DNA of 51,141 bases from a virus. Its lineage: Duplodnaviria; Caudoviricetes. Positions 1,327 through 51,141 of the stretch are shown piece after piece; position 1 is the first letter of the stretch; every line of letters starts with the position of its first letter. The DNA lies in the IMG/VR virus record IMGVR_UViG_3300044799_000031, positions 1 through 51,141 of that record, one strand, 5' to 3'. The position numbers and the translations under genes are program-made. Under the pieces are notes generated by a model. It was not told the DNA's origin and made no database searches. It saw only the letters and a list, made by a program, of their open reading frames with translations.

Positions 1327-2499
1327 GTGACAATATTGTCTGTTTGTGAGTCCAACGGGTGTAAACCAGACACCCAATCGAATTCTCTGTTTAAGCATCC
1401 GTTGGTGCAGACTCTTTTAGATCAATTACCCATTCCGACCATTAGCACTCCATTTAAAATCGAGATGCCTATAGCGAAGAGTTTCCATGAGAAAGGAAAG
1501 TTTATCGTTGCTGGTTACGCCTCGGTAGAGGTCATCGACTCCCAGAATGAAATGATTCCACTTCCTGTTCTAAAGGATGCTTGGATACGGTTCCGGAAGA
1601 ACGAGGACTTCAAGATTGGAAGTCTCATGCATACCAATATACCGATCATTAAAATCCTTGACGAGTACCGTGACTCAAAAGGTCAACTTTGGAAGAGTGG
1701 GGTTGATGAGACCGGTCTCTTCATTGTTGCCGAGGTAAGAGACGACATTGAAATGGGTAAGAAGACGATTGTGCTCATTGAGAAAGGCGACTTAACCGGG
1801 TTTAGCATTGGAGGAGAGGCCTTGGCTAGTTCGGTAATATGTGAGGGTCGATGTTATACTCGCATCGATAAGATGGAACTCCACGAGATCGCCGTAGTTG
1901 ATAGGCCAGCCAATCAACCATCGGTCTTCACGATTGTTAAATCGGAGAGGTTAAAGAAGTTGGTCGAGTTAACCGACGTCTTGCCTAATCTCATCATTAG
2001 TCCGGGCGTCGCTCGACTTGGTGGGAGCGTTGCTGAATTAGGTGAAGGCCATGACTTTGACGTAATTATATCGGCGACTAAAGGATCCTTCGTTGATCGT
2101 GCCATTCAGACGAGAATATTCAACGAACTTAGGAAGATTGGTCGAGAGGACATTTGGAAAAGTATTCACATCACCCACGAACCTGAAGGTCTGGGACCCT
2201 TTACCGACTTTGTTAATTTGTACGATCTTGTGCTGCTCCGTTCTCCAATGGAAAAGAAAAGCATGGTTCTTAAAGGCGGAGAATCATTAGAGCAACTCAT
2301 GGAGGAGTTTGACCTTAACACTGATTCGATTGAACAGGTTAAGGAACTTTTTTGGGAGGATGTTGAGAAGGGTTCAACCCTCATTCTCGCTTCGATCCAT
2401 AAACTGGATGAGGCAATGACGACCTTAACGAAGAATAATTCAGACAAATTAATAATGGACTCGATCCAGAAGTTGGACGGGGTCCTATCCAAGTTATGA
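1327..2499 (+). CDS. HK97-type prohead protease fused to a nucleotidyltransferase-like domain
   Basis: IVAGYASVEVIDSQNE, LMH, LTGFSIGG, LHEIAVVDRPANQ; then RLGGSVAELGEGHDFDVII (GS..DxD). Start may be TTG 1336 after GGTGA. Confidence 0.88.
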   Translation: MTILSVCESNGCKPDTQSNSLFKHPLVQTLLDQLPIPTISTPFKIEMPIAKSFHEKGKFIVAGYASVEVIDSQNEMIPLPVLKDAWIRFRKNEDFKIGSLMHTNIPIIKILDEYRDSKGQLWKSGVDETGLFIVAEVRDDIEMGKKTIVLIEKGDLTGFSIGGEALASSVICEGRCYTRIDKMELHEIAVVDRPANQPSVFTIVKSERLKKLVELTDVLPNLIISPGVARLGGSVAELGEGHDFDVIISATKGSFVDRAIQTRIFNELRKIGREDIWKSIHITHEPEGLGPFTDFVNLYDLVLLRSPMEKKSMVLKGGESLEQLMEEFDLNTDSIEQVKELFWEDVEKGSTLILASIHKLDEAMTTLTKNNSDKLIMDSIQKLDGVLSKL

Positions 2500-4243: not shown

Positions 4244-4262
4244 CATTCTTTAAATAGGATGC
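4243..4262 (+). promoter_or_regulatory. TATA-like TTTAAATA within an inverted repeat
   Basis: GCATTCT-TTAAAT-AGGATGC immediately after the capsid stop codon. Confidence 0.4.
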
Positions 4263-4324
4263 ATCTATTCTATTTTGTCCGTCCAGTTTATTTTAGTCTG
4301 GACATACCGTCTTGAAGGCATAAC

Positions 4325-4690
4325 ATGAGTTTAAGTCTAAGGTTAAATCCGGATACTCTTCCGAGGCAAAGTAAAACGGTTCTAGATGTTCCTATGGAAT
4401 GTTTAGTCGGGAGACACAAGGCCTTAGATTTTCAGTATAATTCGGTTTATGGGGTTCCAATAATCAGATGCCGGGCGTGCGGAGCAAATTTGTCTAGACA
4501 AATTTTAGAAGGAGTGAAGTCCAGAACGGAACTTAGGGAAGTGGAGAAGAAGGCCAGAACTCGTAGAAGTACTCCATCTGAGTCCCTCGACAGACTTGCT
4601 ATGACCCACGACGAGGATAAAATTAGGGATCCTATTCTACGTTCTTTAGTTGAGGCGAGGGTCAAGCAATTAGAGGAGAATAGACAGTGA
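4325..4690 (+). CDS. Zn-finger protein, function unknown
   Basis: CLVGRH...CRACG. Confidence 0.6.
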   Translation: MSLSLRLNPDTLPRQSKTVLDVPMECLVGRHKALDFQYNSVYGVPIIRCRACGANLSRQILEGVKSRTELREVEKKARTRRSTPSESLDRLAMTHDEDKIRDPILRSLVEARVKQLEENRQ

Positions 4691-4734
4691 CAAGCGTCAC
4701 ACCAGCAAGACTGGTTTCAAACGCGGTCCTCTTT

Positions 4735-4761
4735 CCGGACCAAACTTTAAATAGTGTCCGG
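4735..4761 (+). promoter_or_regulatory. TATA-like TTTAAATA within an inverted repeat
   Basis: CCGGAC..ACT-TTAAAT-AGT-GTCCGG upstream of 4813. Confidence 0.4.
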
Positions 4762-4812
4762 TTCAGAGGTGTAAAGTGTTTAGCGATAAAGCATGAAGGA
4801 GGGTAGAAAAGG

Positions 4813-5790: not shown

Positions 5791-5898
5791 TAGGGTTTTA
5801 TAGACTACTTCTCCCAGACCGGGGGAGGCTAATCTTCCGGTCACTTAAAGGAATCAATAAATACAAGAAGGAGAAATAAGGATTAAAGGAGGTTTGGC

Positions 5899-25133: not shown

Positions 25134-25370
25134 ATGGTGTTGAAGGAGAAAGAGTTGAAGGCGAGGGGAATTTGTGCCTTCTGCAACTTCAGCGAAAACT
25201 GCGTCGACTGTTCCCATAAATATGGAGTAGAGTTGAAGTGGTCGTTGTACGCTCTCTTCAACTGGAAAAAATGTCAGGATTGGAGATTCTACTTGTCACC
25301 ATCAACCCGATTACTCGAGAGATTTAAAGATTTCTTGTCGAGGAAGATGAATTGGTTCAAATGGCTTTAG
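25134..25370 (+). CDS. Small Cys-rich protein
   Basis: GGTGA RBS; CAFCNFSENCVDC. Confidence 0.55.
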   Translation: MVLKEKELKARGICAFCNFSENCVDCSHKYGVELKWSLYALFNWKKCQDWRFYLSPSTRLLERFKDFLSRKMNWFKWL

Positions 25371-30077: not shown

Positions 30078-32000
30078 GTGTTTGGTTTGAAGAAGGACGA
30101 ACTATTCTTCAGGAACATTCTTCAAGCGATGGACCCTGACTTTTCTGATTATATGTTTGGGAAGGACTACAAACTTCTAGAAGTCGATGGCATAACGAAG
30201 ATTAATCCCTTCAAATTTAGGAAGGACTATTGGAGTATGCCGTCCGATCAAGTAACCATCAATCCAAATGCGAATCTCGGGAATACTGGGGACCGTAAAA
30301 ACTTTTGTAATCTCATCAGCGAAGTCTCTGCTCCTGTCAATAAATTATCGGCGTTGATGCTTATACGAAAATATGGTAACAGGAGAGGCAACAATCATGA
30401 TGGCGATGATCTTGTCGAGAATATTGTCAATGGCGCTTTGTACCATCATAATCTCACCCTCTACGATCTTCCGTACTGTATTGGTCTTTCCCTCTATCCT
30501 ATCATTAGCGAAGGTCTCTGTCTCGGCGGTCTCCTGAGCAACCCTCCTCATCGGCCAACCAGTTTTGTTAATATAGCGGTTAGATTCGTGCAGTATGCTT
30601 CAAACCATTTTGCTGGAGCGACGGCCATTACCGATTTTTTTCTCCATTATTCGTACTACACTTCTCAGAGGAAGGACTACAGCGATAAGAAACGGGAAAA
30701 CGATCTTCAAAATCTTATTCATGGATTTACCGATGAGGTGAGACTTTCTGGTCAGAGCCCGTTCACCAATCTTTCTCTTCTAAGTCCGGAGACGATGCGG
30801 AGTATGATGGGGAACTACCTTTGGGGTCTAGACACAAAGGTCTCTGATCTCATGGACGAGATTATGCATAATCAACTCATATACGCTAAATTCTTCAGTC
30901 AAGGCCAATTGGGTCCGGACAGGAAACCAACGGGTCTGCCTTACCGCTTTCCCATCACTACCTTGGTTGCTGATCCTTCCTTTGAGAAGGAGTATCCTGA
31001 AGTCTGGAATCAGATCCTTGAATCAAACATCAATCTCTGCTACCTAAACATTCTGAATAACATGCAGACAGATCTTAAGAGTCTATCCATGTGCTGCCGA
31101 CTGACTCAAAACATTGAGGACCTTCTTAAATTGAATGTAAACAACACCTTTGGTTCGTACCTCTCAATCGGTTCACACGCCGTTGTATCTTTGAATCTTC
31201 CTCGGATCGCTCATGAAACAAAGGACGAAGATAAATTTATGGAGATCCTCGTGGAACGATGCGAAATGGCGCGCAAACTCCTTCTCATACATAGAGAGGA
31301 AATTCTCCAGAATAGAAGACTCAAATACCATTGGTTCTTCAAGACGAAGAAACTCGATCTCAAAGCCAATTTCTTCTCTACTATAGGGTTCATTGGCTTG
31401 GCGAATGCTCTAGAAATTCTGGGAATGAGAGTTACAGAGGTGTCCGGAGGCCTTAAATTTGCCAAGAAGGTTCTTCAAGTCCTTAAAAACAAGTCCGTGG
31501 AGTATTCTCGGGAAGATGGTTACATGTACAACATCGAGGAGGTTCCAGCGGAAGGCGCCTCTGGTGTGTTGGCGCTCAAGGACAAAATGCTTTATAATGG
31601 GACGCATGATTATTATGACAATCAGTTTGTTCCTCTCTCATACGACATCAGTTTGTTGGACAGGATACTCATTGAGGGAGAACTACAGTCCTACTGTACC
31701 GGAGGTTCTATTGCTCATCTCAACGTCGACTCTATGATGGAGGCCAGATCCGGCGTGGACTTTACGGAGAGACTCCTCAAGATAAGTAAGTTGGTTCACT
31801 TCGCCCTGAACAAGGGTTTCACAGTATGCAGTAGCGGTCATGTTGTCCAGGGCATCTATCAGAAGTGCAAAGAATGCGGTAGCGAAGACGTGGATCACGT
31901 CACCCGGATAGTTGGTTACTTCGCTCCAACCAGTTCTTGGAACCGAGCAAAGCAAGCGGAGTTTAAAACCCGAACATGGATGAAATTCACTCATGTCTAA
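30078..32000 (+). CDS. nrdD: Class III (anaerobic) ribonucleotide reductase, no ATP cone
   Basis: QSPFTNL, SMCCRL, SLNLPRIA, EEVPAE, TGGSIAH, Zn ribbon, glycyl-radical loop TRIVGYF..WN..KQAEF. Confidence 0.95.
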   Translation: MFGLKKDELFFRNILQAMDPDFSDYMFGKDYKLLEVDGITKINPFKFRKDYWSMPSDQVTINPNANLGNTGDRKNFCNLISEVSAPVNKLSALMLIRKYGNRRGNNHDGDDLVENIVNGALYHHNLTLYDLPYCIGLSLYPIISEGLCLGGLLSNPPHRPTSFVNIAVRFVQYASNHFAGATAITDFFLHYSYYTSQRKDYSDKKRENDLQNLIHGFTDEVRLSGQSPFTNLSLLSPETMRSMMGNYLWGLDTKVSDLMDEIMHNQLIYAKFFSQGQLGPDRKPTGLPYRFPITTLVADPSFEKEYPEVWNQILESNINLCYLNILNNMQTDLKSLSMCCRLTQNIEDLLKLNVNNTFGSYLSIGSHAVVSLNLPRIAHETKDEDKFMEILVERCEMARKLLLIHREEILQNRRLKYHWFFKTKKLDLKANFFSTIGFIGLANALEILGMRVTEVSGGLKFAKKVLQVLKNKSVEYSREDGYMYNIEEVPAEGASGVLALKDKMLYNGTHDYYDNQFVPLSYDISLLDRILIEGELQSYCTGGSIAHLNVDSMMEARSGVDFTERLLKISKLVHFALNKGFTVCSSGHVVQGIYQKCKECGSEDVDHVTRIVGYFAPTSSWNRAKQAEFKTRTWMKFTHV

Positions 32001-32578: not shown

Positions 32579-32625
32579 TTTATAAGCGGAGTATAGGGTT
32601 ATAGAGTATGGGTGTTTGGAAGATG
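32579..32625 (+). promoter_or_regulatory. Conserved viral promoter/leader, copy 2
   Basis: TTTATAA-GCGGAGTATAGGGTT..GGGTGTTTGG..ATG. Confidence 0.7.
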
Positions 32626-34224
32626 CAAGAGAAAATATTTAAGGTTGAAGGTTCTGACAAGAGGAAGCAATTTGCCGAGGAAGAATTGGATGAGGCCCAG
32701 AAGGCACATGGTTCCGATGTGGAGTACTTCTCACCGGAAACAGGATTTGCTCTCTTGAGCAAGGACGCTCCAATCAAATACCACATGTCGTTTGTCCGGC
32801 GTGCTTTATCCGCTGCTAGACTCAGTCTCAAGACTCCTCTCGAACTGAGGGAGTTTTACTATGCTATGCGCCAGAATCCGGATCTGGTCAAACCATTTGA
32901 CACGGGCAATCCCGACACAATCTATCCGAACGTGTTGAGGTCCATTATGGACGTTGAGATTTTATGTGATGTGGACCGCGACGTCTTCACGATTGGGAAC
33001 CTAAGCAAAGGTTTTATTTACTATTATCATTCGCCAGTCTTTGGCCAGAAGGAGCGCAAGATCGCCTTTACCGAGGTCATCGCCAGAACAATTATGTCTC
33101 CGGAGAAAGAAGAGGAATGGCAATGTGGCAACTGCGAGAACATCATTGTCGTGGAGAAGAACGCGGCGGCAACGAGGATGGTTGAACTCGGCATCTCAGA
33201 ATTTACTAACAGCATTATAGTCACGGTCGGTGGAAACTTTAGTCGAGCAATCTGGGAACTGACGGATCGTTTCAAAGACAAGAAGAACATGATATTCATG
33301 GCGGATGCTGATGCCTATGGCGTGGACATGCTTCGCACGATAAGGGTGGGCACCGAGTCGAGTAGACATCTACCGTACAAGTTCCCTCCCGAGATCTTCC
33401 CTAAGATATTCTTGGCCGGACTTTATCCTTCCATTGGTGAGGATTTAAATCTGCCGAACGATGTCGAGCAGAAGAGGCCACTTCAAAATCCCTTTGTTCA
33501 GCAAAGAATTGCTTTCTTGAGAAAATATGGTTTACTCAACGCGAAGGACGAGCAAACATGGAAGAATGACAAGACATACGAGTTGGAAGCCCTATCAACC
33601 TCGTTCACAGATGAGGCAGGTAAACCAATTGGCCTAGGCATCTATATCGTTGAGTATATGCGCTTGCACAACATACCTGTCAAGCCGCCAATCCCTCCGG
33701 ATGATGAATTGGAAAAAGAATTTCATGACGCCGCTATTGCAGAACTTAGGAGAGAAATTGATGAGAAGGTTACTTATCCGAAATTCTTCTGGGATCTTTA
33801 TCACCTGTTCACAGAGAAGAAGGAGGAACTAATCGGGGAGATTCTGGAGAAACTTCTTCCCGCCTACGAGAAATGTTTGGAGAGAGTAACCGCTAAGGAG
33901 ATCAAATTTCATATATACAAGCAATTCGAAGCGGATCCTAAACGAAGTACTTACGACTTAGCCGCGATCGCTCATAAACTTAAGACTAAATTTGACGTAA
34001 TAATAGATTGGGCAATGCAGGCGTTCGAGATAGCGATGGATGAAGCACTAATCGAGTATGATAAACCGTCCGCCAATACTGATGAAGTGGAGTTTACTCC
34101 AATTCATAATGAGACCAACTATGATCCGAATGGGTACGACCTCATACTCAAGAGGATGGGTGCCAAAGACGAGGACGTTGCTAGAGTGAGAGAAGCCCTC
34201 AAGAATCGGTTCGGGATGGAGTAA
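32623..34224 (+). CDS. top6A: Topoisomerase VI subunit A / Spo11-like protein with C-terminal extension
   Basis: LREFYY (catalytic Tyr motif), Toprim VVEKNA, VTVGGN, ADADAYG, ELEAL. Confidence 0.85.
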   Translation: MQEKIFKVEGSDKRKQFAEEELDEAQKAHGSDVEYFSPETGFALLSKDAPIKYHMSFVRRALSAARLSLKTPLELREFYYAMRQNPDLVKPFDTGNPDTIYPNVLRSIMDVEILCDVDRDVFTIGNLSKGFIYYYHSPVFGQKERKIAFTEVIARTIMSPEKEEEWQCGNCENIIVVEKNAAATRMVELGISEFTNSIIVTVGGNFSRAIWELTDRFKDKKNMIFMADADAYGVDMLRTIRVGTESSRHLPYKFPPEIFPKIFLAGLYPSIGEDLNLPNDVEQKRPLQNPFVQQRIAFLRKYGLLNAKDEQTWKNDKTYELEALSTSFTDEAGKPIGLGIYIVEYMRLHNIPVKPPIPPDDELEKEFHDAAIAELRREIDEKVTYPKFFWDLYHLFTEKKEELIGEILEKLLPAYEKCLERVTAKEIKFHIYKQFEADPKRSTYDLAAIAHKLKTKFDVIIDWAMQAFEIAMDEALIEYDKPSANTDEVEFTPIHNETNYDPNGYDLILKRMGAKDEDVARVREALKNRFGME

Positions 34225-40112: not shown

Positions 40113-40512
40113 AATAAAGCAACTGATAGCAGAGAAGAAATTGGATATTGAACCGTACGATCCCGATAGACTTGGACCTGTCAGTTATGATCTGACGACT
40201 CACGCGTTTGGGAGCATCAATGACGTACGTCAATTGACGACTGCTGAAGTCATAACGATGCCTCGGGACTTAGTTGGGATCCTGACCCCTCGAAGTCGCT
40301 TAGCGGTTAGGGGACTGTTTGCCAGTTTCAGTCTTCTTGTGGACCCAGGTTTCAAAGGCCATTTGATCTTCCTCGTTTTCAGACCCGGGCAATTGACAGA
40401 GGACTACAACGTTTCTGATCTCTTTCAAATAATGTTTATGAAGATTGGGTCCGTGGGTACAAGTTATGATGAGAGACCTTCGAGTACCGCTATGGGGAGA
40501 AACGGATTCTAA
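40096..40512 (+). CDS. dCTP deaminase/dUTPase-fold protein
   Basis: MLTDNEI..IEPY..SYDL, TPRSRLA, VDPGFKG; deaminase Glu not evident. Confidence 0.8.
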   Translation: MLTDNEIKQLIAEKKLDIEPYDPDRLGPVSYDLTTHAFGSINDVRQLTTAEVITMPRDLVGILTPRSRLAVRGLFASFSLLVDPGFKGHLIFLVFRPGQLTEDYNVSDLFQIMFMKIGSVGTSYDERPSSTAMGRNGF

Positions 40513-42029
40513 TGGATGAGGTTGACGCCTTAAGACTGAAGTTGTCTCGCTCCAAGAGTGTTTGGGACGTCATCGACTGTATAAAAATTTGGAGAGACAT
40601 TCTGCTTAAAAAGAGCGATATGGAATTTAGAACCTATCAAATGCCTCTGAGCGATAAGATCATCGAATTTAGAGTGACGGAAGGCGCCTTGGGGAACGAG
40701 ATTGTAACCTTATGGTGCAGGCAGTCAGGTAAGACTGAAACCGTCTCTTTCACCGTTCTAGTTCTCGGCACCTTCTACATAATGTTTTTGAGGGAGGACA
40801 TCAATTGTGGACTCTTCGCTCCCGTTGAGAGTATGATCACCCACGTCACGAGAAACAGGTTGAGGACCAGATTTAAGAAGTTGAAGAAATTTCTGTGGGA
40901 CACAGGAAAGATCAAACAGATCGCCGGAGAAGGTCTAACATCCAGTCTCTTTGTTCTCGAGAGCATGGTTACGGATAAGGAGTTTACATGTCGATCATTG
41001 TCAGTCGGGGAACAAGCAGAAATTATTGGAGAAACGTTTGGTCTCATGATCATTGAGCAATCTGAACTCGTTAACGCCATGAAGTTGAAGACCGACGTTT
41101 TTCCAATGGGTGCTGAGAAAGGCGGGATCCGTGTGTTAACAGGGACGACTTCACCGTATTTCAAGAATGAGTACTTCAGGCAGGCCATTGAAAAGTGGAA
41201 TCCGGATCCTAGGAGAAATAGAAGCACCGCCGACTTTCTAGAGGTTGTCGACTGGAAGTTGGCCGCTGAATCGTCTCCTGCCTATCGTCGCTACGTGGAA
41301 CAGGAGAAGAGAAGGTTAGGATCCGACAGCATCGAGTTTAGAACCCAGTACTGTCTAGAGTGGTTGGGCGCCGCCTTGAAGTTTATCGGATTTGAGAAAC
41401 TGACATTACAAGAGAAGGACTATATCTGGGACAAGGAAAGACTTCGCTTCTTTGGCATCGATGTCGCTCGGGCGGGTGATAGTACCGTTGTCACCGTCAT
41501 TGAATTGAATGGGATGGAAATCTATATTCTCGGTTGGTTAGAACTTGAAGGTCTCGACTTTGAGAATCAATTTCCTAGGATAGTGAAGTTTCTCAAGGAG
41601 TATCAACCCCTTCGTTTTGGTGTAGTAGACGTTCCCGGTATGGGAGTCGCTCTATATGACATGCTTAAGAAGCGACTTTGGGATGAAGTTTTAGATGCCG
41701 AAGGAAAAGTCGTTGAGAGAGTTGCGTGGGCACGTCTTGATGGTTTCTATGGGTCCAAGACTGAGAACGACAATTTATTCAAATGCATGGATCGAGAATT
41801 TCAACATGGACGAATATACTTTCCAAAGACGACAAAGTACCTTCGAGAGAAGGCGAAGTTTGTTGACCAATTGCTTGATCTCGAAAGACATTATCTAGGT
41901 CATTCTCTGAAACTTCAGGCGCCAAAAATTAAAGGGAGACACGACGACTATCCTCTGAGTCTGGCTCTGGCCTTGTATGCCCTGAAGGAGAAGAGTTTTA
42001 AGACTGCTATAAGATCCATCAACTTCTGA
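40512..42029 (+). CDS. terL: Terminase large subunit
   Basis: RQSGKT Walker A, LTGT motif, GIDVARAGDSTV and HDDY nuclease motifs. Confidence 0.93.
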   Translation: MDEVDALRLKLSRSKSVWDVIDCIKIWRDILLKKSDMEFRTYQMPLSDKIIEFRVTEGALGNEIVTLWCRQSGKTETVSFTVLVLGTFYIMFLREDINCGLFAPVESMITHVTRNRLRTRFKKLKKFLWDTGKIKQIAGEGLTSSLFVLESMVTDKEFTCRSLSVGEQAEIIGETFGLMIIEQSELVNAMKLKTDVFPMGAEKGGIRVLTGTTSPYFKNEYFRQAIEKWNPDPRRNRSTADFLEVVDWKLAAESSPAYRRYVEQEKRRLGSDSIEFRTQYCLEWLGAALKFIGFEKLTLQEKDYIWDKERLRFFGIDVARAGDSTVVTVIELNGMEIYILGWLELEGLDFENQFPRIVKFLKEYQPLRFGVVDVPGMGVALYDMLKKRLWDEVLDAEGKVVERVAWARLDGFYGSKTENDNLFKCMDREFQHGRIYFPKTTKYLREKAKFVDQLLDLERHYLGHSLKLQAPKIKGRHDDYPLSLALALYALKEKSFKTAIRSINF

Positions 42030-42690: not shown

Positions 42691-45162
42691 ATGTCGAGCA
42701 AGAGAAGCAAGATGCCAGTTCGGCGCGGCATTCCAATGAATGATACTCGAGCGAAGGTCCTTAAGTTCGTTGCTAAGATGCTTAATAGACCATTAGTCAA
42801 GACGAAACCAGTTCAACCTGTCTATGTCTTTGAACCGGAACCACAGATTAGAAAACCTCTATTTGACTATGTTAATCTCTTTGAGGCGGCATGTCGTTCT
42901 TGGCCTCTTAGACGTGCTTTCCGTGCAATCATTCAGGAATGTACAAGAAACCGATGGATTCGTCAATCTAAGTTCAAGTGGAAGTGCACAAGTGAAACCT
43001 GTGAAAAGGAATATCAAACTCTTCCAAGTGGGTTTAAGGACGGAGAAACTCCCTCTTGTTCTTGTGGCGCTCCTCTGAGAGAACCTTCTAAGGAGCAAGC
43101 AGACATCTTTGACAGAATTCTAAAGACACCCAACGAGGATTATAGGTTTGACGATTTTGTTCGGTCAAGCATTTTTTACGACTTGGCTTTGGACGATTGG
43201 TACTGGGGTATAGGTTTCGTTAGGAAACCAAAAACAGCGGATGGGAAGATCATTGTTCAAAATGGCGAGGCCATTTACGAGAGAGTACCAAAATGGCTTT
43301 ATGTTGAGGATGCTCGATTCATATTTCCGGTCGCCGATCAGTACGGTCATCTCGGAGGATACGAGTACTTCTGTCCGGAATGTTACGATCTTCTCAAAGG
43401 CGATCAACCAGTTGCCCAGATTAGACCTGATACTCCTATTGAAGAGTTTGAGAGGTTGGTTAAGTGCCCTAACTGTGGAGGACTGATGGAGCAGACCGCT
43501 TATGTTCAGGAGATTCAGGGGGTCGTAGTCGCCAGATTCACGAAGTATGAATTGATTCATGGTTCTAGTTCCAGGGTGCTTCCTGCTTTATTTGGTAACA
43601 GCAAACTAATAACGGTTTGGAAACTGGTTCATACGATTCTTGCTATGGACGACTACAATTTTGAGGTATACAATGAAGGGAAGGTTGGAGCAATTCTAGG
43701 ATTTCCGGGGTACGATCAACTAGAAGTAGACGAGATAAATAAAGGCGTAGAAGAAGAACTTAAGCGCCTGGATAAACAGGACATTCAGACCGGAAGGTAC
43801 GAGAGGAGCAAGAAGATTCGGACGTTGATGCTTGGGATTAAGAAGGATCAAACTCCAATTCGGGTTCCTCTAATGGAGACTCTAGAGAACATGCAGTCCA
43901 TTGAATTCTATAGGTTGTACGCCAATGCTATTTCACAGGTCTATGGGACAACTCCAACCTTTGACGGTGGTGATGCTGGTGGACCCGGAGTAAGAGAGAC
44001 TATGGAAGTTCAGAATCGAACGATTATAGATCACCAGAGCAACTTCTCGGATTTATTTAATCAGGAAGTTTGTCCACTCTTCGGTATCTTTGACTGGTAT
44101 CTCGGTTTCAATCCCGTTGAGGCAAGGGATGAACTGAGACTTGCTCAAATTCATCAGACTCGAGCGGCAGCGGCATTCACCTATCTCAGAGGTGGGTTCG
44201 ACGTCTCGATAGCCGATGACGGGAATTTAATTATATCTGGTATGGGAGAAATTTCAGGAAACGAACCGGAAGGTTCTCGAGCAAGGGAGGATCGAGCAAT
44301 GATAGGCAAACCTTGGCGGTGGGAATACGGTCAAGCAGGAGGCCGGACTCAAGGTCAACAACTAGAACTTGCTGAACATGTACCCATTCGAACGCCTTTC
44401 AGTCTCCCTCATTCCGAGACCAAACTTCAGGGTCATCTAAATGCTATTCTGAATTGGGCAGTTAAGAGAGTCAAGAGTGGTTCGAACAGAGAAAGCACGG
44501 TTAAACAGGCGAAGGAGAAGGCGGACAAGATGCTCAAGGACTCCTATGAGTTTCTGGTGAATCGCGCTCTATCCCATGCAAGAAAGAGGACGGGAAAAGA
44601 GGTTCAAATTGGTCCTGAGGAATTTAAACGATTAGAGTCATGGAAGGCCAACAGTTTAGATGATTTTGAGTCGATTCTAAATGATCAGTTGACTGGTTCA
44701 GTGCAGAAGTCTCCAATTAAGAAGGCCGACGTCGCTAATCTTGAACCGACGACTAGACTACCGGCGTCTTGGTACGAGACAACTCGAACCAGAATTCTAG
44801 ACCATGAGTTTGCCTTGAATGGGGATCAAAACGAGGTTTACCTCACCATTGACGGTTACGAGGTGTCAAAGTCTAGGTTGTCCGCGACTGAATTTTCAAG
44901 GTGTATTTCACTCATGATTGAGTCCATGCTTGACCTGATAGATTATACGTATGATGGGAAAGAAGGATTTCCTATCGATGCTTTCGAAGAACATTCCATC
45001 GATTGGTTGTCTGATCTGAAGGTGAAGTATGACACCGAAACCATGGAATCAATCGTTGAATTCTTTAACGGAATTACTCTTCCTGACATTGCTCAGGCCT
45101 TCAATGGTCTTAGGGTCCGACTGGACAAGGTGAAATTTTCAACTCTTGAGGAGGTTACTTAA
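42691..45162 (+). CDS. Portal protein with two Zn-ribbon insertions and a long C-terminal extension
   Basis: After terL; AYVQ..VARFTKYELIH..FGNS, YNFEVY..G...AILG, ISQVYG. Confidence 0.82.
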   Translation: MSSKRSKMPVRRGIPMNDTRAKVLKFVAKMLNRPLVKTKPVQPVYVFEPEPQIRKPLFDYVNLFEAACRSWPLRRAFRAIIQECTRNRWIRQSKFKWKCTSETCEKEYQTLPSGFKDGETPSCSCGAPLREPSKEQADIFDRILKTPNEDYRFDDFVRSSIFYDLALDDWYWGIGFVRKPKTADGKIIVQNGEAIYERVPKWLYVEDARFIFPVADQYGHLGGYEYFCPECYDLLKGDQPVAQIRPDTPIEEFERLVKCPNCGGLMEQTAYVQEIQGVVVARFTKYELIHGSSSRVLPALFGNSKLITVWKLVHTILAMDDYNFEVYNEGKVGAILGFPGYDQLEVDEINKGVEEELKRLDKQDIQTGRYERSKKIRTLMLGIKKDQTPIRVPLMETLENMQSIEFYRLYANAISQVYGTTPTFDGGDAGGPGVRETMEVQNRTIIDHQSNFSDLFNQEVCPLFGIFDWYLGFNPVEARDELRLAQIHQTRAAAAFTYLRGGFDVSIADDGNLIISGMGEISGNEPEGSRAREDRAMIGKPWRWEYGQAGGRTQGQQLELAEHVPIRTPFSLPHSETKLQGHLNAILNWAVKRVKSGSNRESTVKQAKEKADKMLKDSYEFLVNRALSHARKRTGKEVQIGPEEFKRLESWKANSLDDFESILNDQLTGSVQKSPIKKADVANLEPTTRLPASWYETTRTRILDHEFALNGDQNEVYLTIDGYEVSKSRLSATEFSRCISLMIESMLDLIDYTYDGKEGFPIDAFEEHSIDWLSDLKVKYDTETMESIVEFFNGITLPDIAQAFNGLRVRLDKVKFSTLEEVT

Positions 45163-46592: not shown

Positions 46593-47174
46593 ATGACAAC
46601 TGAAACTCGTTACATGACGAGCACAGTAGTTCTAAGTGCCATGTATGATCTAAACATAATTAATACAAATTCAACCGTCACTAAAGCAGACGAAGTTTAC
46701 GAGGGAGACTGCAGTTTTTACATTAAGTGTAAAATTTATGCTTATCACGCTGATGCTTCAAGGATTTTACTTGGCACGTCAACTGTTCAAACTGAAGATG
46801 GTGGGCCTTCTTCATATAATGAATTGGACGTTACTTGGGCAGTTTCTCCAGCAAAGTCAATTTTGGTCACTGATAGGGTGCAGGTAGAGGTGTACGGTGA
46901 AATAGATGTAAATCCTCCAACTATTCTTCTGGCGACTCTCATAACTGAAGTATTAGGAGTCACGCAGTTGGATGCCGTTACGTGGACTTTTCACCTTTGG
47001 GTTCACGTCATTCGAATTCCAGGGAATGTGGATTATGTCTACTATTTTAGTTTTCTATTCGGTTCAACGACAAGAAATAGCAGGATAACAAATTTTACAT
47101 ACTCAACTCCTGCCGCAATTAAGGGGGTTAGTGGGAATATTATTCCGTTAATGCAGATTATGGATATGATCTAA
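46593..47174 (+). CDS. Beta-rich putative virion protein
   Basis: GGAG RBS; Thr/Val/Ser-rich; structural neighbourhood. Confidence 0.6.
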   Translation: MTTETRYMTSTVVLSAMYDLNIINTNSTVTKADEVYEGDCSFYIKCKIYAYHADASRILLGTSTVQTEDGGPSSYNELDVTWAVSPAKSILVTDRVQVEVYGEIDVNPPTILLATLITEVLGVTQLDAVTWTFHLWVHVIRIPGNVDYVYYFSFLFGSTTRNSRITNFTYSTPAAIKGVSGNIIPLMQIMDMI

Positions 47175-47455
47175 TGTCAGAAGAATTTTGGTCCTCAGAA
47201 AAAGGAGTTCTTATACGGATTGAGGATCTGGCGCACGATTTCACTTTCCAAATCTACAATGGCGCTTTACGGGGTTCATTTAAGGACGCGGGGTTTAGGA
47301 AGTTTAGATGGGCGACCACTCTTGACGGTTCAACGTGCAGATACTGTTGGGATCAAAACGGTCGTGAGTACAACGCTGGAATGTTTCTTCCAAGGATGCC
47401 GGCACATCCGAAGTGTAGATGTCTTTGGGATATACTTATAAGTATGTTTGAGTAA
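47174..47455 (+). CDS. Minimal MuF / SPP1 gp7-type head morphogenesis protein
   Basis: WATTLDGSTCRYC...MPAHPKCRC. Confidence 0.85.
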   Translation: MSEEFWSSEKGVLIRIEDLAHDFTFQIYNGALRGSFKDAGFRKFRWATTLDGSTCRYCWDQNGREYNAGMFLPRMPAHPKCRCLWDILISMFE

Positions 47456-47476: not shown

Positions 47477-47866
47477 ATGGAAAAGGATCTCACATACAGC
47501 AGAAACCAAAGACCGCAACCTTTCAAGGAGGTCGTGGGGACTGGAGGAACTATTCAGAAGGTTCCGATGAAGAAGTGGATAAGGGAAGTTGTTAAGAATC
47601 CAAACGGAGAAACAGCAGTTCGAGCACGAAAGAAGAATGATCCTGATCTTAAAAAGGTTCATCTGGCGACTTTATCTCACGTCACAATGGTGGATCCGGA
47701 AGAGATAGTAGAGAGGATGGAGAGTCATAGACCTCAAGTAAGTCCTCAGACGGATCTTACCTGTCGCACTTTAGACCAGAAGGTCGCCAAGGAAATGGGT
47801 TTTAGGCCAGCGGAGGCCGGAAAGTTTGGACAATCAAATAAGAAAAGCACTTCAGTTAACGAATGA
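47477..47866 (+). CDS. Hypothetical protein
   Basis: ORF with GGAG upstream. Confidence 0.6.
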   Translation: MEKDLTYSRNQRPQPFKEVVGTGGTIQKVPMKKWIREVVKNPNGETAVRARKKNDPDLKKVHLATLSHVTMVDPEEIVERMESHRPQVSPQTDLTCRTLDQKVAKEMGFRPAEAGKFGQSNKKSTSVNE

Positions 47867-48203
47867 TAGGCGCCCGGGTTACACGATTCAATTTCACCCG
47901 TCTCGTTTTAATAAACCTCTAAGTTGTCGTTCAGGAATACATGAGCATCCTACAACAACCATCATTAATGGAATACCGTGCCTCTATTGTCTCGACTGCG
48001 GCGAACACATTGGGAAAGGTATTTGGGAGCGGACTTGGTCTAAAGGCGACATGGAGAAGTTGAGTACTCTTCAAGAAAGAAAACCCAGGACCAAAGAAGA
48101 AATAATGAGACAAATATGGGAAAGAAACCAGAAGAATAGGGATAAGAGTCTAAGCGAGTTCGTCCAGTTCAGGATGGAGTCCGGCATTGAAGGGCGTCGA
48201 TGA
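47826..48203 (+). CDS. Zn-finger protein
   Basis: CRSGIH...CLDCG, resembling the C..H..CxxCG pattern of 4325..4690. Confidence 0.55.
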   Translation: MDNQIRKALQLTNDRRPGYTIQFHPSRFNKPLSCRSGIHEHPTTTIINGIPCLYCLDCGEHIGKGIWERTWSKGDMEKLSTLQERKPRTKEEIMRQIWERNQKNRDKSLSEFVQFRMESGIEGRR

Positions 48204-51141
48204 ACTATCAACTAAGGCACTTCATTTTCAAATAGCCAAGTTGAGAGTATTATTCAATCAGACTCCAGATTCTATTATTCGTGAAGGTATCATTAAACGT
48301 TATGGAATTGTTAGGAACCAGATTAAAAAGAGAGAAATTCCTTGGACATGGAATTATCACATTCTCGACGATTTAATCGTGAAAGGACCGGGAAGTTTCA
48401 TTAAACCGAATAAACCGGCGTGGAGAATATTCGACGCTAAAGAGGTTTTTGACATACCTGAATTCAGTCTACCTTCCAGAGTGGATATCAAAATTGATGG
48501 TATGAGGATCCAGATCCATTATGCCAATGGAGTCAAGTTTCTCTCAGAGGACGAAGGTCTAGATAAAACCGAGAAGTTTAAGATGGCGGCAAAGGAAGTC
48601 GAACAACTTCCGAAAGGAACCGTCCTCGACTCTGAAGGAGTCATTGTCGACAAAGGCGAGGTTCTTCATCGAACAACTTTTATAGGATACGCTAATGGTG
48701 AAGGATACGACGAGAATCTCGACTCTAAAGCAGAATTCTGGGTATTTGACATTCTCTTCTATCAGGGTAAGGATCTACGCAATCTTCCTTACTCTGAGCG
48801 TCTAACTTATCTAGACAAGATTAAAACCTCTGAGCATCTTAGGCCATTTCAAACCGGAAAGGAGTCCTTTACATGTCGAACTAGAGAAGAGATTTTGGCC
48901 GCCGTGAAGAAAGTAAGCGACATGAAAGGTTCCGAGGGCGCCATGATCAAGTTCTTGAATGGGACTTACGTTGAAGGAGTGCACAATAAGACATGGGTCA
49001 AGATCAAGAATCTTAAAGAGATCGACTGTATGGTGGTCGAGATTGAGCAACCTAAACATCAAAAGGGTCCTCTGGAGGGGAAACCAATTGAAGGCGTCTA
49101 CAACTACCATATTGCCGCGGGACCTTACGACGACAAATGCGCGTCCTTTTTGAAGGAGAAGGATCCCAAGAAAATTAGAGAGGTTAATGGCAAGACCTAT
49201 GCTTATCTGGGTAAAACCTTCAACACAAGTATTGCCGTCAAGGTTGGGAACATAATCAGGATCTGGACGCCTGAAGTTAATCGTTATCCGATAGAGGATT
49301 CTGGTTGCTCTACTTTTGGCGTGTATGAACCTAAGGTCCTCGAACACGTGGCAGAGAGGAATATACCGGACTCAATGAATGTGCTTATGAGGTTGAGTGC
49401 TGAGACCGTGCCACGACAACTTGGGAAGCAGGAGAGCAATTCGATGTACCTCCCCCGACATTCCTGCATGATGGTTTGGTCGGGTATTAAGACTCAGATT
49501 GTCAAAGAAAAACCCTTTGAAGGTATGCTAAACAAGGAACTCTATCTGTGTGATGACCACTATTTCTATGGTGAGATAGAGTTAACATCGATGAAGAAAG
49601 TTACTCGGAAGGAAGTTGAACAAGACATTCACCTTAATCGTATCTTCGGCGAAGACTGGGAGGACTGGAAAGGAGCACGAGAGTTTTACTCCTATGAATT
49701 TACGTTTGAGGCGGTTTTTGAACCTCAAGTCGTTGACGTGCCTAAAGGCGCTCAGACGTTCTTCTCCTTAGATCCGGAGACCGTACTCAGAATTGAAAGG
49801 GTCCGGACTAGCGCCGACTTCATAGGTTTGCTTCGGAAGGTTTCTAAGGACTATAAATTCGTTCTTCATCGCCACTATGGATCAGACTTAAACACCCACT
49901 TCGACCTAAGATGGATGTTTGATTCAACTCACAAGGAGGAGTTTAATCTATATGGCGATCCTCGGACCATGGATGTCGGGAGTAGCATTGACGCCCGGAG
50001 AAAGAGTTTCACAGAGTCGCCTGAATCTCTCGCATTATGGATGGTTACTGAAGGGGAACATTTAGAACGTCATGTAAGAGGAGTTGATACTCCTACCTAT
50101 ATTGACGTTATAGATTCCGGGACCTTGAAGATTCTATTGGAAAATGATTTGAATATTGAGTTAGAAATCGACGGTCGTAGTTTGAAAGGTTTCTTCCTCT
50201 ACTCAAAGGAACCGAAGGCCTCATTCAAGAAGGTCAGTTCATTTCTGGTCAAGGACGAGGAACACGGTCCTCCACTTTCTGAATACGAGGGTCTCGCTAA
50301 AGACGGTGAACCTCTTCCATCTAAATTTTACAAGTGGCAACCGGAATGTACGGACTGCAACTTTGTTCTTCAGAGGCATTATCCGACGGGACGAAAGGAA
50401 CCCATTAAACCGGGAGAAGAAGTTCCTCAGATGCATAAGGATCTAAATGACTCGGAGTTAGCCGACGTCTTTCTAGAGGGTTATGTTTCCAGTCGAATGG
50501 GGTGTCCACCGGCAAAGATGATCATGAATAAAGCGGAATCAAGTCCCGTATGGAACAAAACGATCAACATGATCATTCGGAAGATTAGAGATCATCTGGA
50601 TCTCAGGATGGAGATAGACAAGAAACTCATCGGAGTAACGATACATCCACCAGTCCCCGAAGGGATAACGGCATGGGAGAGTTTTCAAGGTAGAATGCAT
50701 GTTGGCGACAAGACCCAGGTGACTCCGAAGTTTGAACATCCAAAGGGTTGGCTTAACGAGGAAGGAGAACTAAGATTTCCAACAAGACATACCGGACCTG
50801 GGGAAGAGGTTCAGCAGGCACATTTTCTAGAAATTGCTCAGATACAGATTCTCGATAAAGGCCAAGTAAAATTTGGTGTGCAAAGAAAGGATCTTCACGA
50901 GTACTTCTTCTATGGAGAGAAGTTGAAAGGGAGATGGGTGCTTAGACGTCTAAAGATTGGTCTAGAGTTTCAGCACGACGCATGGTTGCTCATGAAACCA
51001 GAGGATCAGAAACCATTGGATCCCAGTTACCACAAGGACGAAGGGTACTGGAAAATCGACTTCATAGAGAAGGTTACGACGGAGGAACGTGCCCATATCG
51101 AGGAAGAGGTTCAACGTTCAAGGGAAGAGAGAGGCGGCGGT
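48187..51141 (+). CDS. lig: 985-aa multidomain protein: ATP-dependent ligase + ASCH-like + two LigD-type 3'-phosphoesterase domains (stop TAG at 128-130 across the junction)
   Basis: Manual translation: KIDGMRIQ (48490), VLDSEG, WVFDIL, SEGAMIK, WVKIK; VWSGIKT..ELYL..YGEIEL; FVLHRH..THFDLR; FVLQRH..DHLDLRME..GEKLKGRWVL. Confidence 0.92.
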   Translation, partial: MKGVDELSTKALHFQIAKLRVLFNQTPDSIIREGIIKRYGIVRNQIKKREIPWTWNYHILDDLIVKGPGSFIKPNKPAWRIFDAKEVFDIPEFSLPSRVDIKIDGMRIQIHYANGVKFLSEDEGLDKTEKFKMAAKEVEQLPKGTVLDSEGVIVDKGEVLHRTTFIGYANGEGYDENLDSKAEFWVFDILFYQGKDLRNLPYSERLTYLDKIKTSEHLRPFQTGKESFTCRTREEILAAVKKVSDMKGSEGAMIKFLNGTYVEGVHNKTWVKIKNLKEIDCMVVEIEQPKHQKGPLEGKPIEGVYNYHIAAGPYDDKCASFLKEKDPKKIREVNGKTYAYLGKTFNTSIAVKVGNIIRIWTPEVNRYPIEDSGCSTFGVYEPKVLEHVAERNIPDSMNVLMRLSAETVPRQLGKQESNSMYLPRHSCMMVWSGIKTQIVKEKPFEGMLNKELYLCDDHYFYGEIELTSMKKVTRKEVEQDIHLNRIFGEDWEDWKGAREFYSYEFTFEAVFEPQVVDVPKGAQTFFSLDPETVLRIERVRTSADFIGLLRKVSKDYKFVLHRHYGSDLNTHFDLRWMFDSTHKEEFNLYGDPRTMDVGSSIDARRKSFTESPESLALWMVTEGEHLERHVRGVDTPTYIDVIDSGTLKILLENDLNIELEIDGRSLKGFFLYSKEPKASFKKVSSFLVKDEEHGPPLSEYEGLAKDGEPLPSKFYKWQPECTDCNFVLQRHYPTGRKEPIKPGEEVPQMHKDLNDSELADVFLEGYVSSRMGCPPAKMIMNKAESSPVWNKTINMIIRKIRDHLDLRMEIDKKLIGVTIHPPVPEGITAWESFQGRMHVGDKTQVTPKFEHPKGWLNEEGELRFPTRHTGPGEEVQQAHFLEIAQIQILDKGQVKFGVQRKDLHEYFFYGEKLKGRWVLRRLKIGLEFQHDAWLLMKPEDQKPLDPSYHKDEGYWKIDFIEKVTTEERAHIEEEVQRSREERGGG
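51015..51141. repeat. Direct terminal repeat, right copy
   Basis: Identical to 1-127. Confidence 0.97.

Follow-up and report, generated by a model that had tools for sequence, protein, structure and literature searches.

The window analysed here, the complete 51,141-nt viral record IMGVR_UViG_3300044799_000031, ends in a long plus-strand reading frame (P0001, 48187..51141) of 985 codons that is open up to the last nucleotide. The first 127 nucleotides of the window are an identical copy of positions 51015-51141 and encode the last 42 residues of P0001 a second time; the record carries a direct-terminal-repeat classification and a completeness of 100%, and this 127-bp terminal repeat marks a circular or terminally redundant assembly. 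Read on the circle with the overlap collapsed, the codon that follows position 51141 is a TAG stop (128-130, plus strand), and since only this stop codon remains beyond the window end we can conclude that P0001 is complete at 985 residues. The start codon is TTG, GGAG stands 8 nt before it, and the frame shares 17 nt with the end of the gene that precedes it. A preliminary description had pointed to a hidden 985-residue protein made up of a ligase, an ASCH-like segment and two 3'-phosphoesterase (PE) domains, and such a protein does indeed exist; the accompanying statement that it spans the junction holds in so far as the frame reaches the window end, but is overstated, as nothing except the stop codon lies past it.

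P0001 is the last gene of a tight run on one strand comprising terminase, portal, MuF-core, p129, p125 and the ligase gene itself, and the stretch from MuF to ligase is almost contiguous. The MuF-core (head morphogenesis) gene (47174..47455, plus strand) encodes 93 residues and matches 11 PHROG head families, and p125 (47826..48203, plus strand) encodes a Cys/His-rich protein of 125 residues that is found immediately upstream of the ligase in five related loci as well. Downstream of P0001 on the circle lie genes for the prohead protease, scaffold and capsid, with two convergent minus-strand genes (104-1061) between P0001 and the protease operon. The position between MuF and protease and far from replication genes, as previously described, is thereby borne out, PolB and other replication genes being about 20 kb away, and the source is a tailed virus, probably one of archaea. 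The S78 prohead protease (1327..2499, plus strand) has a C-terminal extension that is possibly a minimal nucleotidyltransferase, which had been proposed to serve as an end-extending partner of the ligase. This suggestion fared poorly: Pfam NTP_transf_2 finds nothing in the window, and the sole link is a BLAST match (E 7e-4) of residues 208-307 of the protease product to the N-terminus of the related protein P0079, which carries a weak NTP_transf_2 match.

The domain order ligase, ASCH-like, PE and PE, with an insert in the second PE, was correctly read in the preliminary description according to per-domain profile and structure searches, and all of its segment boundaries match the re-derived ones within about 100 nt. 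The N-terminal 97 residues (48187..48477) belong to no family found by profile searches, and L12, R20 and an NKP-R motif at 75-80 are conserved in close homologues. They are followed by an ATP-dependent DNA ligase nucleotidyltransferase domain (residues 98-274, 48478..49008), which is recognised by Pfam DNA_ligase_A_M (PF01068; E 1.1e-21, 77.9 bits against a cut-off of 26.2), by phrog_114, by archaeal ligase structures in the PDB (E 5.5e-11) and by NCBIfam, where the best matches are models of NHEJ ligases (TIGR02779, 5.8e-22). DNA ligase families alone match this domain, apart from mRNA_cap_enzyme at only 0.091. The ligase motifs are KIDG (102-105), which we take to be motif I with the KxDG adenylation lysine, and FWVFD (184-188), EGAMIK (250-255) and WVKIK (270-274), presumably among motifs III, IV and V; K102, D104, G105, D188, E250, G251, K272 and K274 are invariant across 12 homologues. 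The conserved region that follows the core (residues 275-412, 49009..49422) is probably the ligase OB domain, and PDB ligase alignments run into it to about residue 308; Pfam gave no match to residues 275-420.

Residues 418-545 (49438..49821) may form an ASCH/PUA-like module, an assignment that is weak and comes from structure comparison. The isolated segment gave nothing at E <= 10, neither Pfam nor NCBIfam has a family that matches it, and the ASCH profile (PF04266) also found nothing when the record was searched in all six frames. An ESM Atlas model of the segment resembles ASCH/DUF365 clusters with TM scores by query of 0.68-0.80, and in our own model, which is of low confidence here (pLDDT 36-74), the best matches other than PE structures were the Zymomonas mobilis ASCH protein 5guq (Z 5.2) and the TRIP4 ASCH domain (Z 4.8), both below the level that the tool regards as secure. 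Modules of this kind were found only within fusion proteins.

The C-terminal part is predicted to fold into two divergent eight-stranded PE barrels of the LigD type, PE1 (residues 555-688, 49849..50250) and PE2 (residues 719-954, 50341..51048). The seven top Foldseek matches in the PDB are all LigD PE domains for PE1, and the same seven were retrieved with the PE2 model (pLDDT 86.4) at E-values of 1.4e-6 to 3.4e-4, so that the PE folds claimed for this part of the protein are in agreement with the structure searches for both domains. PE1 compared with 3p4h (VIA) gives a Z of 14.6 and an rmsd of 2.4 over 116 residues and with 3n9b (VIA) a Z of 12.5, and its family profile matches 3p4h at 3.8e-7 and 3p43 at 8.9e-7. 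P0001 falls under the curated cut-offs of the PE families, since TIGR02777 matches only PE2, where it scores 19.2 bits (cut-off 144), and Pfam LigD_N (PF13298) matches neither barrel; two relatives, P0035 (36.2 bits) and P0048 (61.2 bits), score above the PE-family cut-off of 31.1 bits, and a PE family is matched at E <= 0.001 by 20 of the 68 relatives scanned. PE2 is interrupted by a mostly helical insert of about 70 residues (roughly 735-800, 50389..50586), which lies between the first and second metal-binding histidines, separates the motifs FVLQRH and DHLDLR and is missing in distant relatives. The protein ends in a charged tail (51049..51141, TTEER...ERGGG) that is conserved where the PE2 modules of close relatives end.

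Six residues are given as essential in the archaeal enzyme MbaPE, namely H36, H42, D44, R46, H78 and Y82 (PMC3082917). In profile alignments PE2 retains five of these (H731, H803, D805, R807 and H851) and has Trp855 at the position of the tyrosine, while PE1 retains four (H563, H571, D573 and R575), the residue aligned with the fifth not being histidine and Trp618 lying near the tyrosine position. Since PE1 has no recognisable third metal-binding histidine and a tryptophan stands for the tyrosine in both barrels, one or both may differ in activity from known PE enzymes. The core is nonetheless well kept across the family: among 116 PE2-type domains H731 is conserved in 109, H803 in 113, D805 in 112 and R807 in 113, E905 is present in all 116, and the His-His-Asp-Arg set of PE1-type domains is kept in 53-57 of 66. 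K848, E905 and R916 are family-specific invariant residues. Furthermore, inteins break the PE2 domains of the relatives P0015 and L019, and this is consistent with a functionally important domain.

The PE domain of LigD is known as a single-copy component of cellular NHEJ. The viral PE domains form a distinct and rare radiation, with 163 proteins matching at E <= 0.001 among 1.84 billion representatives, and its two subtypes are found together and alongside a ligase. The best 150 of these 163 were listed and included 146 that were newly retrieved; according to our own HMMs, 55 of the 146 have both PE types, 58 have ligase together with PE2 and 19 have all three. In 20 related viral loci a PE2-type domain is invariably found in or near the ligase gene, lying within the ligase frame itself (4 loci), in the next one (12), past one small frame (3) or past five (1). 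The linkage of this architecture to head genes, which the preliminary description had raised, is partial: the neighbourhood from portal or MuF to protease or capsid recurs in 7 of the 20 loci, down to 25-41% identity, but the other 13 have no recognisable head gene beside the ligase and PE pair. Among the loci, the portal gene directly adjoins the ligase gene in L016, and L019 has ligase, PE, protease and capsid genes in that order. In five large related viruses the terminase is 10-25 kb distant and the Pfam models of portal, MuF and S78_2 found nothing; none of five related records yielded a match to MPTase-PolyVal, the peptidase that serves as a signature of polyvalent proteins.

Modules are shuffled among the relatives, and some of the resulting fusions join the enzymes to head proteins. 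Peptidase_S78_2 is carried by 5 of the 68 scanned relatives and Phage_Mu_F by one; a fusion of ligase, PE2 and the S78_2 (XkdF-type) prohead protease is found in P0064, P0068, P0076, P0079 and P0082, and P0071 has the architecture MuF-PE2-PE1. A D12 N6-adenine methylase, which is found in the proteins of L016 and L019, and a metallo-beta-lactamase are also fused in relatives, as are UDG and Pyr_excise (pyrimidine-dimer glycosylase) domains in others, and such additional domains are characteristic either of effectors that phages inject or of DNA repair.

Like bacterial LigD, P0001 combines an ATP-dependent ligase and a 3'-phosphoesterase of the PE fold in one polypeptide. However, it has no polymerase domain, the genome has no Ku, it contains two PE barrels of different subtypes and an ASCH-like module where LigD has a single PE, and it is viral and located among head genes. 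The absence of Ku and of the LigD polymerase had already been remarked upon and is upheld by Pfam Ku and LigD_Prim-Pol, which give no match at E <= 1 in the complete 51-kb record. The scores of P0001 against the LigD models are well short of the cut-offs (78 of 228 bits, 19 of 144 and, for TIGR02776, 69.8 of 373). The best structural and profile matches of PE1 and PE2 are the stand-alone archaeal enzymes CkoPE (3p43), MbaPE (3p4h) and the Methanocella PE (5dmp), with which they have the His-His-Asp-Arg core in common. These are however single-domain cellular proteins, whereas in P0001 the third histidine is present in PE2 only, Trp replaces Tyr, and PE2 has both the insert of about 70 residues and the family-specific invariants.

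Among annotated GenBank virus records of the phage collection, that of ANMV-1 (KP703175.1), an archaeal virus, is alone in having a match that extends past the ligase core; its 866-residue protein AJP62006.1 is annotated just as a ligase and, according to our own HMMs, continues into a PE2-type domain. It differs from P0001 in having about 25% identity, no ASCH-like module, only a fragmentary PE1 match and neighbours that are not recognisable head genes. With polyvalent proteins P0001 has in common that several unrelated domains, here four modules, are joined and encoded among the virion genes of a virus with terminase and portal. N6A methylase and MuF are described as hubs of the polyvalent-protein network, polyvalent proteins are reported to be scarce in archaea, and ATP-dependent DNA ligase, LigD PE and ASCH are absent from the main text of the same study (Iyer et al. 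2017, PMC5512222). P0001 itself has none of the hub domains (MuF, MPTase, N6A methylase and others), but relatives have MuF (P0071) and D12.

The reading frame, the domain identities, the retained catalytic residues, the gene order and the fusions of relatives are observed, and from these we infer the enzyme activities, substrate, timing and, above all, packaging and delivery of P0001. The reading that we favour, while giving it slightly less than an even chance, is that of a capsid-loaded enzyme that is delivered with the genome, heals 3' ends and seals nicks. A packaged kit had been suggested in the preliminary description, with circularisation of the incoming genome and action on RNA among its candidate functions, and the idea of packaging gains indirect support from the head-gene setting that recurs in 7 of 20 loci and from the fusions to prohead protease and MuF. 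The two divergent Mn-type PE barrels would clear 3' ends of phosphates, and possibly of terminal ribonucleotides or other blocks, so that a 3'-OH is exposed for the ligase to join to a 5'-phosphate, and the ASCH/PUA-like module would bind nucleic acid. Since there is no Ku and no LigD polymerase, and profile searches found no 5'-kinase domain in P0001, the preferred substrate is probably not that of classical NHEJ but a nick or break at which the 3' end is blocked while the 5'-phosphate is intact. Its synthesis would be late, and the protein would be taken into the interior of the capsid and travel with the genome, as the polyvalent or internal proteins of phages do, whereupon it may mend DNA damage acquired in the particle or suffered on entry. 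Late synthesis and loading are suggested by the place of the gene at the end of the head-gene run and by the fusions of its relatives to prohead protease or MuF; in P0001 itself, however, neither a MuF, protease or metallopeptidase domain nor a signal for targeting to the capsid is recognised.

The position in the head module can reflect late expression alone, and P0001 might accordingly be expressed late without being packaged, in order to heal and seal 3'-blocked nicks and gaps in replicated DNA so that concatemers can be packaged, its location stemming only from being needed at packaging time. This notion, which we regard as rather unlikely on balance, is in good agreement with a gene that has the orientation of terminase, portal and MuF and follows them almost without a gap, with the fact that every domain acts on nucleic-acid ends and with the lack of a capsid-protein domain in P0001 itself, and it should also be mentioned that nicked DNA impairs packaging in T4 and that T4 needs its ligase late. 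It leaves unexplained, however, why ligase and PE modules are fused to prohead protease and MuF, both of which belong to the capsid interior, and why they are fused to N6A methylases that are typical of injected effectors.

A function in RNA repair, in which host ribonucleases cut the RNA, PE and ASCH would heal the resulting 3' ends and the ligase would restore the strand, in function much like T4 Pnkp/Rnl, is improbable. The notion stems from ASCH domains being generally held to bind RNA, from the weak match of the ligase of the distant relative L008 to Pfam RNA_ligase (1.4e-6) and from the action of LigD PE on 3'-ribonucleotide ends (PMC3082917), but P0001 matches DNA ligase families only (1e-21), the DNA ligase match of L008 is far stronger (1.3e-29), there is no 5'-kinase domain for the 5'-OH ends that such RNases leave, and the domains co-fused in relatives (UDG, pyrimidine-dimer glycosylase and DNA methylases) are DNA enzymes. 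We likewise give little credence to an ordinary replication or recombination ligase that adjoins head genes by chance and whose C-terminal modules are degenerate or merely bind DNA. A ligase would be needed by a virus that, like this one, encodes a PolB of its own, and the scores under the curated PE-family cut-offs, the missing metal ligand of PE1 and the Trp in place of the catalytic Tyr in both barrels could be taken to indicate decay; such an explanation is however in poor agreement with the conservation of the catalytic core in PE1-type and PE2-type domains alike and of E905 throughout the latter, with the inteins found in PE2, with the pairing of ligase and PE in all 20 loci and with the distance of about 20 kb to PolB and other replication genes.

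If P0001 is indeed a delivered heal-and-seal enzyme, it would add genome repair to the roles of injected phage proteins, which are mostly known to modify or attack the host or to shield DNA from restriction, and would extend the theme of polyvalent proteins to archaeal viruses. Large eukaryotic DNA viruses do package DNA repair enzymes in their virions, for example the ligase and AP endonuclease set of ASFV; the concept is the same, but enzymes, viruses and hosts are unrelated, and packaging is documented there whereas it is proposed here. A more general and more doubtful extension is that tailed viruses of archaea, and some of bacteria, carry a kit for the repair of strand breaks and base damage in their capsids, loaded by fusion to prohead protease or MuF or by co-assembly. 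Such a kit might comprise the ligase and two PEs and, in relatives, UDG or pyrimidine-dimer glycosylase, a metallo-beta-lactamase nuclease, a minimal nucleotidyltransferase and DNA methylases, and would mend, before replication begins, 3'-blocked nicks that are inflicted on entry or that build up while the genome is packaged, as might happen in hot sediments. It would be the first virion-borne DNA repair system described in prokaryotic viruses, and polyvalent or internal head proteins would gain a new functional class. The enzymes may be of practical use as Ku-independent end-healing ligases and, should the host be a hydrothermal Bathyarchaeon, are likely to be thermostable. Finally, the fusions to prohead protease suggest a natural route for loading cargo into HK97-type capsids.

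The domain identity of P0001, the 985-aa protein encoded at 48187-51141 on the plus strand, can be regarded as secure. Its frame comprises 985 open codons and runs past the window end. The first 127 bases of the window are identical to its last 127, and IMG/VR classifies the record as having direct terminal repeats and as 100% complete; in the circular reading a TAG at 128-130 is the codon directly after 51141, so that the 985 residues make up the whole of P0001, the stop codon alone lying beyond the window end. Translation is assigned to a TTG with GGAG 8 nt upstream and a 17-nt overlap with the stop codon end of the 125-aa ORF before it. No in-frame ATG occurs before residue 106, and homologues start at the equivalent position. 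Base composition is uniform over the window and the ligase gene thus bears no foreign mark.

The ligase core occupies residues 98-274 (Pfam DNA_ligase_A_M, 1.1e-21) and is furthermore matched by phrog_114 'ATP-dependent DNA ligase' (4.3e-21), by archaeal ligase structures (up to 5.5e-11) and by NHEJ-type and other ligase NCBIfams, the latter at up to 5.8e-22 and all far under their equivalog cut-offs. The motifs KIDG, which contains the lysine, FWVFD, EGAMIK and WVKIK are invariant in 12 homologues, and the conserved stretch up to residue 412 is probably the OB domain, PDB alignments reaching to about residue 308. When isolated, the N-terminal, OB, ASCH and PE1 segments gave no matches in Pfam, NCBIfam and PHROG scans. 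Residues 418-545, devoid of any sequence-family match, can with moderate confidence be described as ASCH/PUA-like on the basis of structure comparison. Over this part the ESM Atlas model of the protein aligns with ASCH/DUF365-carrying clusters (TM 0.68-0.80 by query), and the AlphaFold model, although poor here (pLDDT 36-74), matches best, PE structures aside, the ASCH protein of Z. mobilis (Z 5.2, 102 residues) and, after it, the human TRIP4 ASCH domain (Z 4.8). A search for shorter stand-alone homologues of it yielded 36 candidates, of which none reached E <= 0.001. An 'ASCH' HMM cut from alignment A5 mainly captured an unrelated domain found before PE1 in relatives and missed P0001, and its labels were discarded.

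The two following barrels, PE1 and PE2, are of the LigD-type 3'-phosphoesterase (PE) fold. PE1 (residues 555-688, a block with pLDDT 79-95) was identified by fold comparison: all seven significant PDB matches in Foldseek are LigD PE structures (3p43, 3p4h, 3n9b, 3n9d, 2lj6, 5dmp), VIA-align gives Z 14.6 with an rmsd of 2.4 over 116/118 residues against MbaPE (3p4h) and Z 12.5 against PaePE (3n9b), and the PE1 family profile finds 3p4h and 3p43 at 3.8e-7 and 8.9e-7, respectively. For PE2 (residues 719-954; pLDDT 86.4, pTM 0.81, modelled from a 35-sequence alignment) the only significant Foldseek matches are the same seven structures (1.4e-6 to 3.4e-4), and at the sequence level the family profile finds 3p43 at merely 0.008 and TIGR02777 gives 19 bits. 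An insert of about 70 aa, mostly helical, of lower model confidence and absent from distant relatives, separates the FVLQRH strand with the first histidine from the DHLDLR strand with the HxDxR motif. A recent duplication giving rise to PE1 and PE2 was considered and rejected, as direct BLAST aligned them over the FVL.RHY motif only (E 0.028), and they are best seen as distant paralogues.

In a Mn-dependent reaction, PE domains first take off a 3'-terminal ribonucleoside and then the 3'-phosphate (PMC3082917). In the same paper Smith et al. name six catalytic residues of MbaPE (H36, H42, D44, R46, H78 and Y82), of which all but Y82 leave the enzyme nearly inactive when mutated to alanine. Profile alignments and hmmalign tallies, and not superposed coordinates, assign H731, H803, D805, R807 and H851 to the PE2 site of P0001, with W855 in the place of the Tyr. 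Of 116 PE2-type domains, 109-113 retain each of the first four; the fifth position is His in only 20, Gln in 50 and Glu in 28, and Glu905 is invariant (116/116). PE1 has H563, H571, D573 and R575, plus W618, and lacks a His at the fifth position of the profile alignment; 53-57 of 66 PE1-type domains retain the H/H/D/R set. Owing to the residues kept and changed in these alignments, both barrels look catalytic, with altered metal or phosphate contacts. The PE2 module is closed by a charged tail, TTEER.HIEEE...ERG (51049-51141, plus strand), which also closes PE2 in the relatives P0002, P0003, P0011, P0012 and P0021-P0023 regardless of the upstream modules, and which may serve as a peptide for targeting or interaction.

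A search for close homologues gave 20 proteins at E <= 0.001, P0001 included, among 5915 candidates, and in these the same modules are freely shuffled, as ligase-PE1-ASCH-PE2 (P0002), ligase-PE2 (P0003), ligase(-ASCH)-HExxH zincin (P0004-6, P0009, P0010), ASCH-metallo-beta-lactamase-ligase(-PE2) (P0007, P0008, P0013), GNAT-ASCH-PE2 (P0011, P0012), ASCH-methyltransferase-ligase-PE2 (P0014) and PE2 with an intein directly ahead of the first His motif (P0015). An exhaustive HMMER search with residues 545-985 returned only 163 proteins at E <= 0.001 from 1.84 billion representatives. Among the best 150 of these, 146 were newly retrieved, and our own HMMs cut from the alignments A3, A5 and A6 found ligase plus PE2 in 58, both PE types in 55 and all three in 19. 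The usual order is ligase-PE2-PE1, that of the window (ligase-PE1-PE2) recurring in just one other protein, P0032. A Pfam scan of 68 of the 146, taken in E-value order at lengths of at least 100 aa and to a total of no more than 48,500 residues, found DNA_ligase_A_M in 22, LigD_N in 20 (best 1.3e-16), Lactamase_B_2 in nine, the XkdF prohead protease domain Peptidase_S78_2 in five, inteins or LAGLIDADG in two to three, Pyr_excise in two, and UDG, Phage_Mu_F, DUF2213 and NTP_transf_2 in one each. The protease domain follows PE2 in chains of the type ...ligase-PE2-S78_2 (P0064, P0068, P0082), in P0076 together with UDG and in P0079 together with a methyltransferase and an N-terminal NTP_transf_2 match; P0071 reads Phage_Mu_F(313-426)-PE2-PE1, and Pyr_excise stands beside ligase-PE2 in P0050 and P0057.

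Several further features of the relatives deserve mention. Most of them (P0029, P0030, P0043, P0061, P0072 and many PE2-x-PE1 proteins) carry a domain of about 150-180 aa before PE1, where P0001 has its ASCH-like module; it carries the motifs WL..EG ... F.G..LKG.W.L, similar to those in the C-terminal half of a PE barrel, and perhaps represents a third PE-like unit in degenerate form. Inteins or LAGLIDADG elements split the PE2-type domains of P0015, of locus L019 (3143-6133) and of the PE genes of L015, L020 and L021, at or beside the first His motif and near the place of the P0001 insert. The HExxH module replaces the PE domains at the C-termini of P0004-P0006 and P0008-P0010, where it is preceded by 'DWC..QGG.WIT..G.H.CIG'; Atlas and a precomputed PF07737 match for P0009 provide a lead, and a lead only, to an ATLF-like zincin, and MPTase-PolyVal was not detected in the five related records searched. 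In L002 (7983-11321) and L003 (9896-13385) the ligase part, with its ASCH/zincin or other tail, and PE2 are separate adjacent or overlapping ORFs, and the same modules thus occur either fused or split.

In the window the ligase gene ends a plus-strand run of head genes, which comprises a terminase (40512-42029, weak Terminase_6C), a portal gene (42691-45162; phrog_18178, 2.5e-12), two genes without assigned function and a 93-aa MuF-core gene (47174-47455; 11 PHROG head families, best 1.6e-9). The MuF-core gene, p129 (47477-47866), p125 (47826-48203) and the ligase gene are nearly contiguous or overlapping. Family searches with both small products were empty. The Cys/His-rich p125 looks like a zinc-binding protein; it is found ahead of the ligase gene in L002-L006 too, and p129 in L002-L004. 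Perhaps p125 acts as a partner dedicated to the ligase-PE protein. Downstream are two convergent minus-strand genes (104-706 and 675-1061), likewise without family matches and conserved in L002 and L004, the former sharing 27 nt with the 3' end of the ligase gene; in the 200-aa product of this pair the C-terminus presumably resembles, as judged by eye, a DUF559/Vsr-like endonuclease motif. Then follow the genes for the S78 prohead protease (1327-2499, plus strand), a probable scaffold and the capsid (3101-4243). Replication genes lie away from the ligase gene and include a family B DNA polymerase (PolB, 25352-27880), the anaerobic ribonucleotide reductase NrdD (30078-32000, 5e-98) and a Topo VI-A/Spo11-like Toprim protein (32608-34224, 5.9e-10), all on the plus strand, as well as a C5 methylase. 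A Spo11-like gene is uncommon in a tailed virus.

Two scans of IMG/VR yielded 20 related loci, and as these were located through ligase motifs the ligase is present in all by construction, which is not so for PE. A simple ORF caller and our own HMMs placed a PE2-type domain in or near the ligase ORF in 20/20 loci, namely within it in four (L004-L007) and in the ORF that follows in 12; one small ORF intervenes in three loci and five ORFs in one (L021). Head genes homologous to those of the window adjoin the ligase/PE pair in seven of the 20 (L002-L006, L016 and L019), and no head gene was recognised beside it in the other 13. L005 and L006 (41% identity) share the order terminase, portal, p125-like, ligase-PE, protease, scaffold and capsid, the portal gene of L016 abuts a methylase-MBL-ligase gene followed by PE, and L019 reads ligase, PE, protease, capsid. 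In five large related records 10-25 kb separate the terminase from the ligase, and the Pfam models of portal, MuF and S78_2 gave no matches there. A scan of genome contigs gave 32 loci, of which 30 hold small (about 300 aa) or other plain ligases without PE, PE2 being found in L022 and L051 only.

ATP-dependent ligases join a 3'-OH to a 5'-phosphate, and P0001 would heal blocked 3' ends and then seal them. Since we found no kinase domain in P0001 and neither Ku nor a LigD polymerase in the record, its likeliest substrate would be a nick or break that retains a 5'-phosphate and whose 3' end is blocked. Just such ends would be made by the UDG and Pyr_excise domains, of glycosylase/AP-lyase type, that are fused in relatives, and these fusions suggest a theme of base-damage and strand-break repair over classical end joining. 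P0001 would accordingly resemble the ligase-plus-PE half of LigD in its working, but it has no polymerase and no Ku, scores far under the cut-offs and possesses two PE subtypes, and is not a LigD. Repair of RNA seems quite improbable as its function, as does the notion of an ordinary ligase with vestigial appendages.

Prohead protease and MuF both reside inside procapsids, and the strongest argument that the module travels in the capsid is that ligase-PE is repeatedly found in covalent fusion with one or the other. The position of the ligase gene at the end of the portal-MuF run argues in the same direction, as does the relatedness of the fused domains to the N6A methylase and MuF hubs of phage polyvalent proteins (PMC5512222). 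P0001 is like these proteins in logic and context, but the hub domains of the class are missing from its own chain, and the main text of PMC5512222 mentions neither a DNA ligase of this kind, nor LigD PE, nor ASCH. We likewise found no description in the literature of a viral ligase-PE head-module protein, the papers listed as matches being on cellular LigD, PE or ligases. Counted against packaging are the failure to detect MPTase, the signature of polyvalent proteins, in the five related records and the lack of a capsid-protein domain in P0001. On balance P0001 may tentatively be proposed to be packaged and delivered, judging from gene order and fusions; a late role outside the capsid, in which it readies DNA for packaging, would account for the synteny equally well and is to be considered somewhat less probable.

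The host of the virus is probably archaeal, although this assignment is weak. The closest relative in a cellular bin, P0007, is encoded on a 3.7-kb contig (L022) of a Hecatellales (Bathyarchaeia) MAG, and among GenBank viruses a ligase-PE protein occurs only in the published archaeal virus ANMV-1 (L054, KP703175.1), the only one among 50,697 phage records in which tblastn of P0001 and the relative P0055 matched the PE region; of the 17 records matched by P0001, the remaining 16 aligned over the ligase core only. These searches brought up no cultivable GenBank isolate with a ligase plus a PE2-PE1 pair. The ANMV-1 protein AJP62006.1 (866 aa, 3200-5800) has a PE2-type domain after the ligase according to our own HMMs and is annotated as 'ATP-dependent DNA ligase' only, with no mention of this domain.

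The preliminary description had called the neighbouring gene a protease-NTase, of which the S78 protease stands, whereas Pfam NTP_transf_2 found nothing in the window and a PDB sequence search for the NTase gave no meaningful match. The protease product does however have a C-terminal extension of about 180 aa. The P0079 N-terminus, itself a weak NTP_transf_2 match (2.6e-5), pairs in BLAST with residues 208-307 of the protease product at 29% identity (E 7e-4), over a region that takes in a G-S/G...D-x-D stretch. As a lead, the extension is possibly a minimal nucleotidyltransferase taken into the capsid by the protease. If this link is true, P0079 would combine in one chain (NTase-methyltransferase-ligase-PE2-protease) the same modules that the window distributes over two genes.
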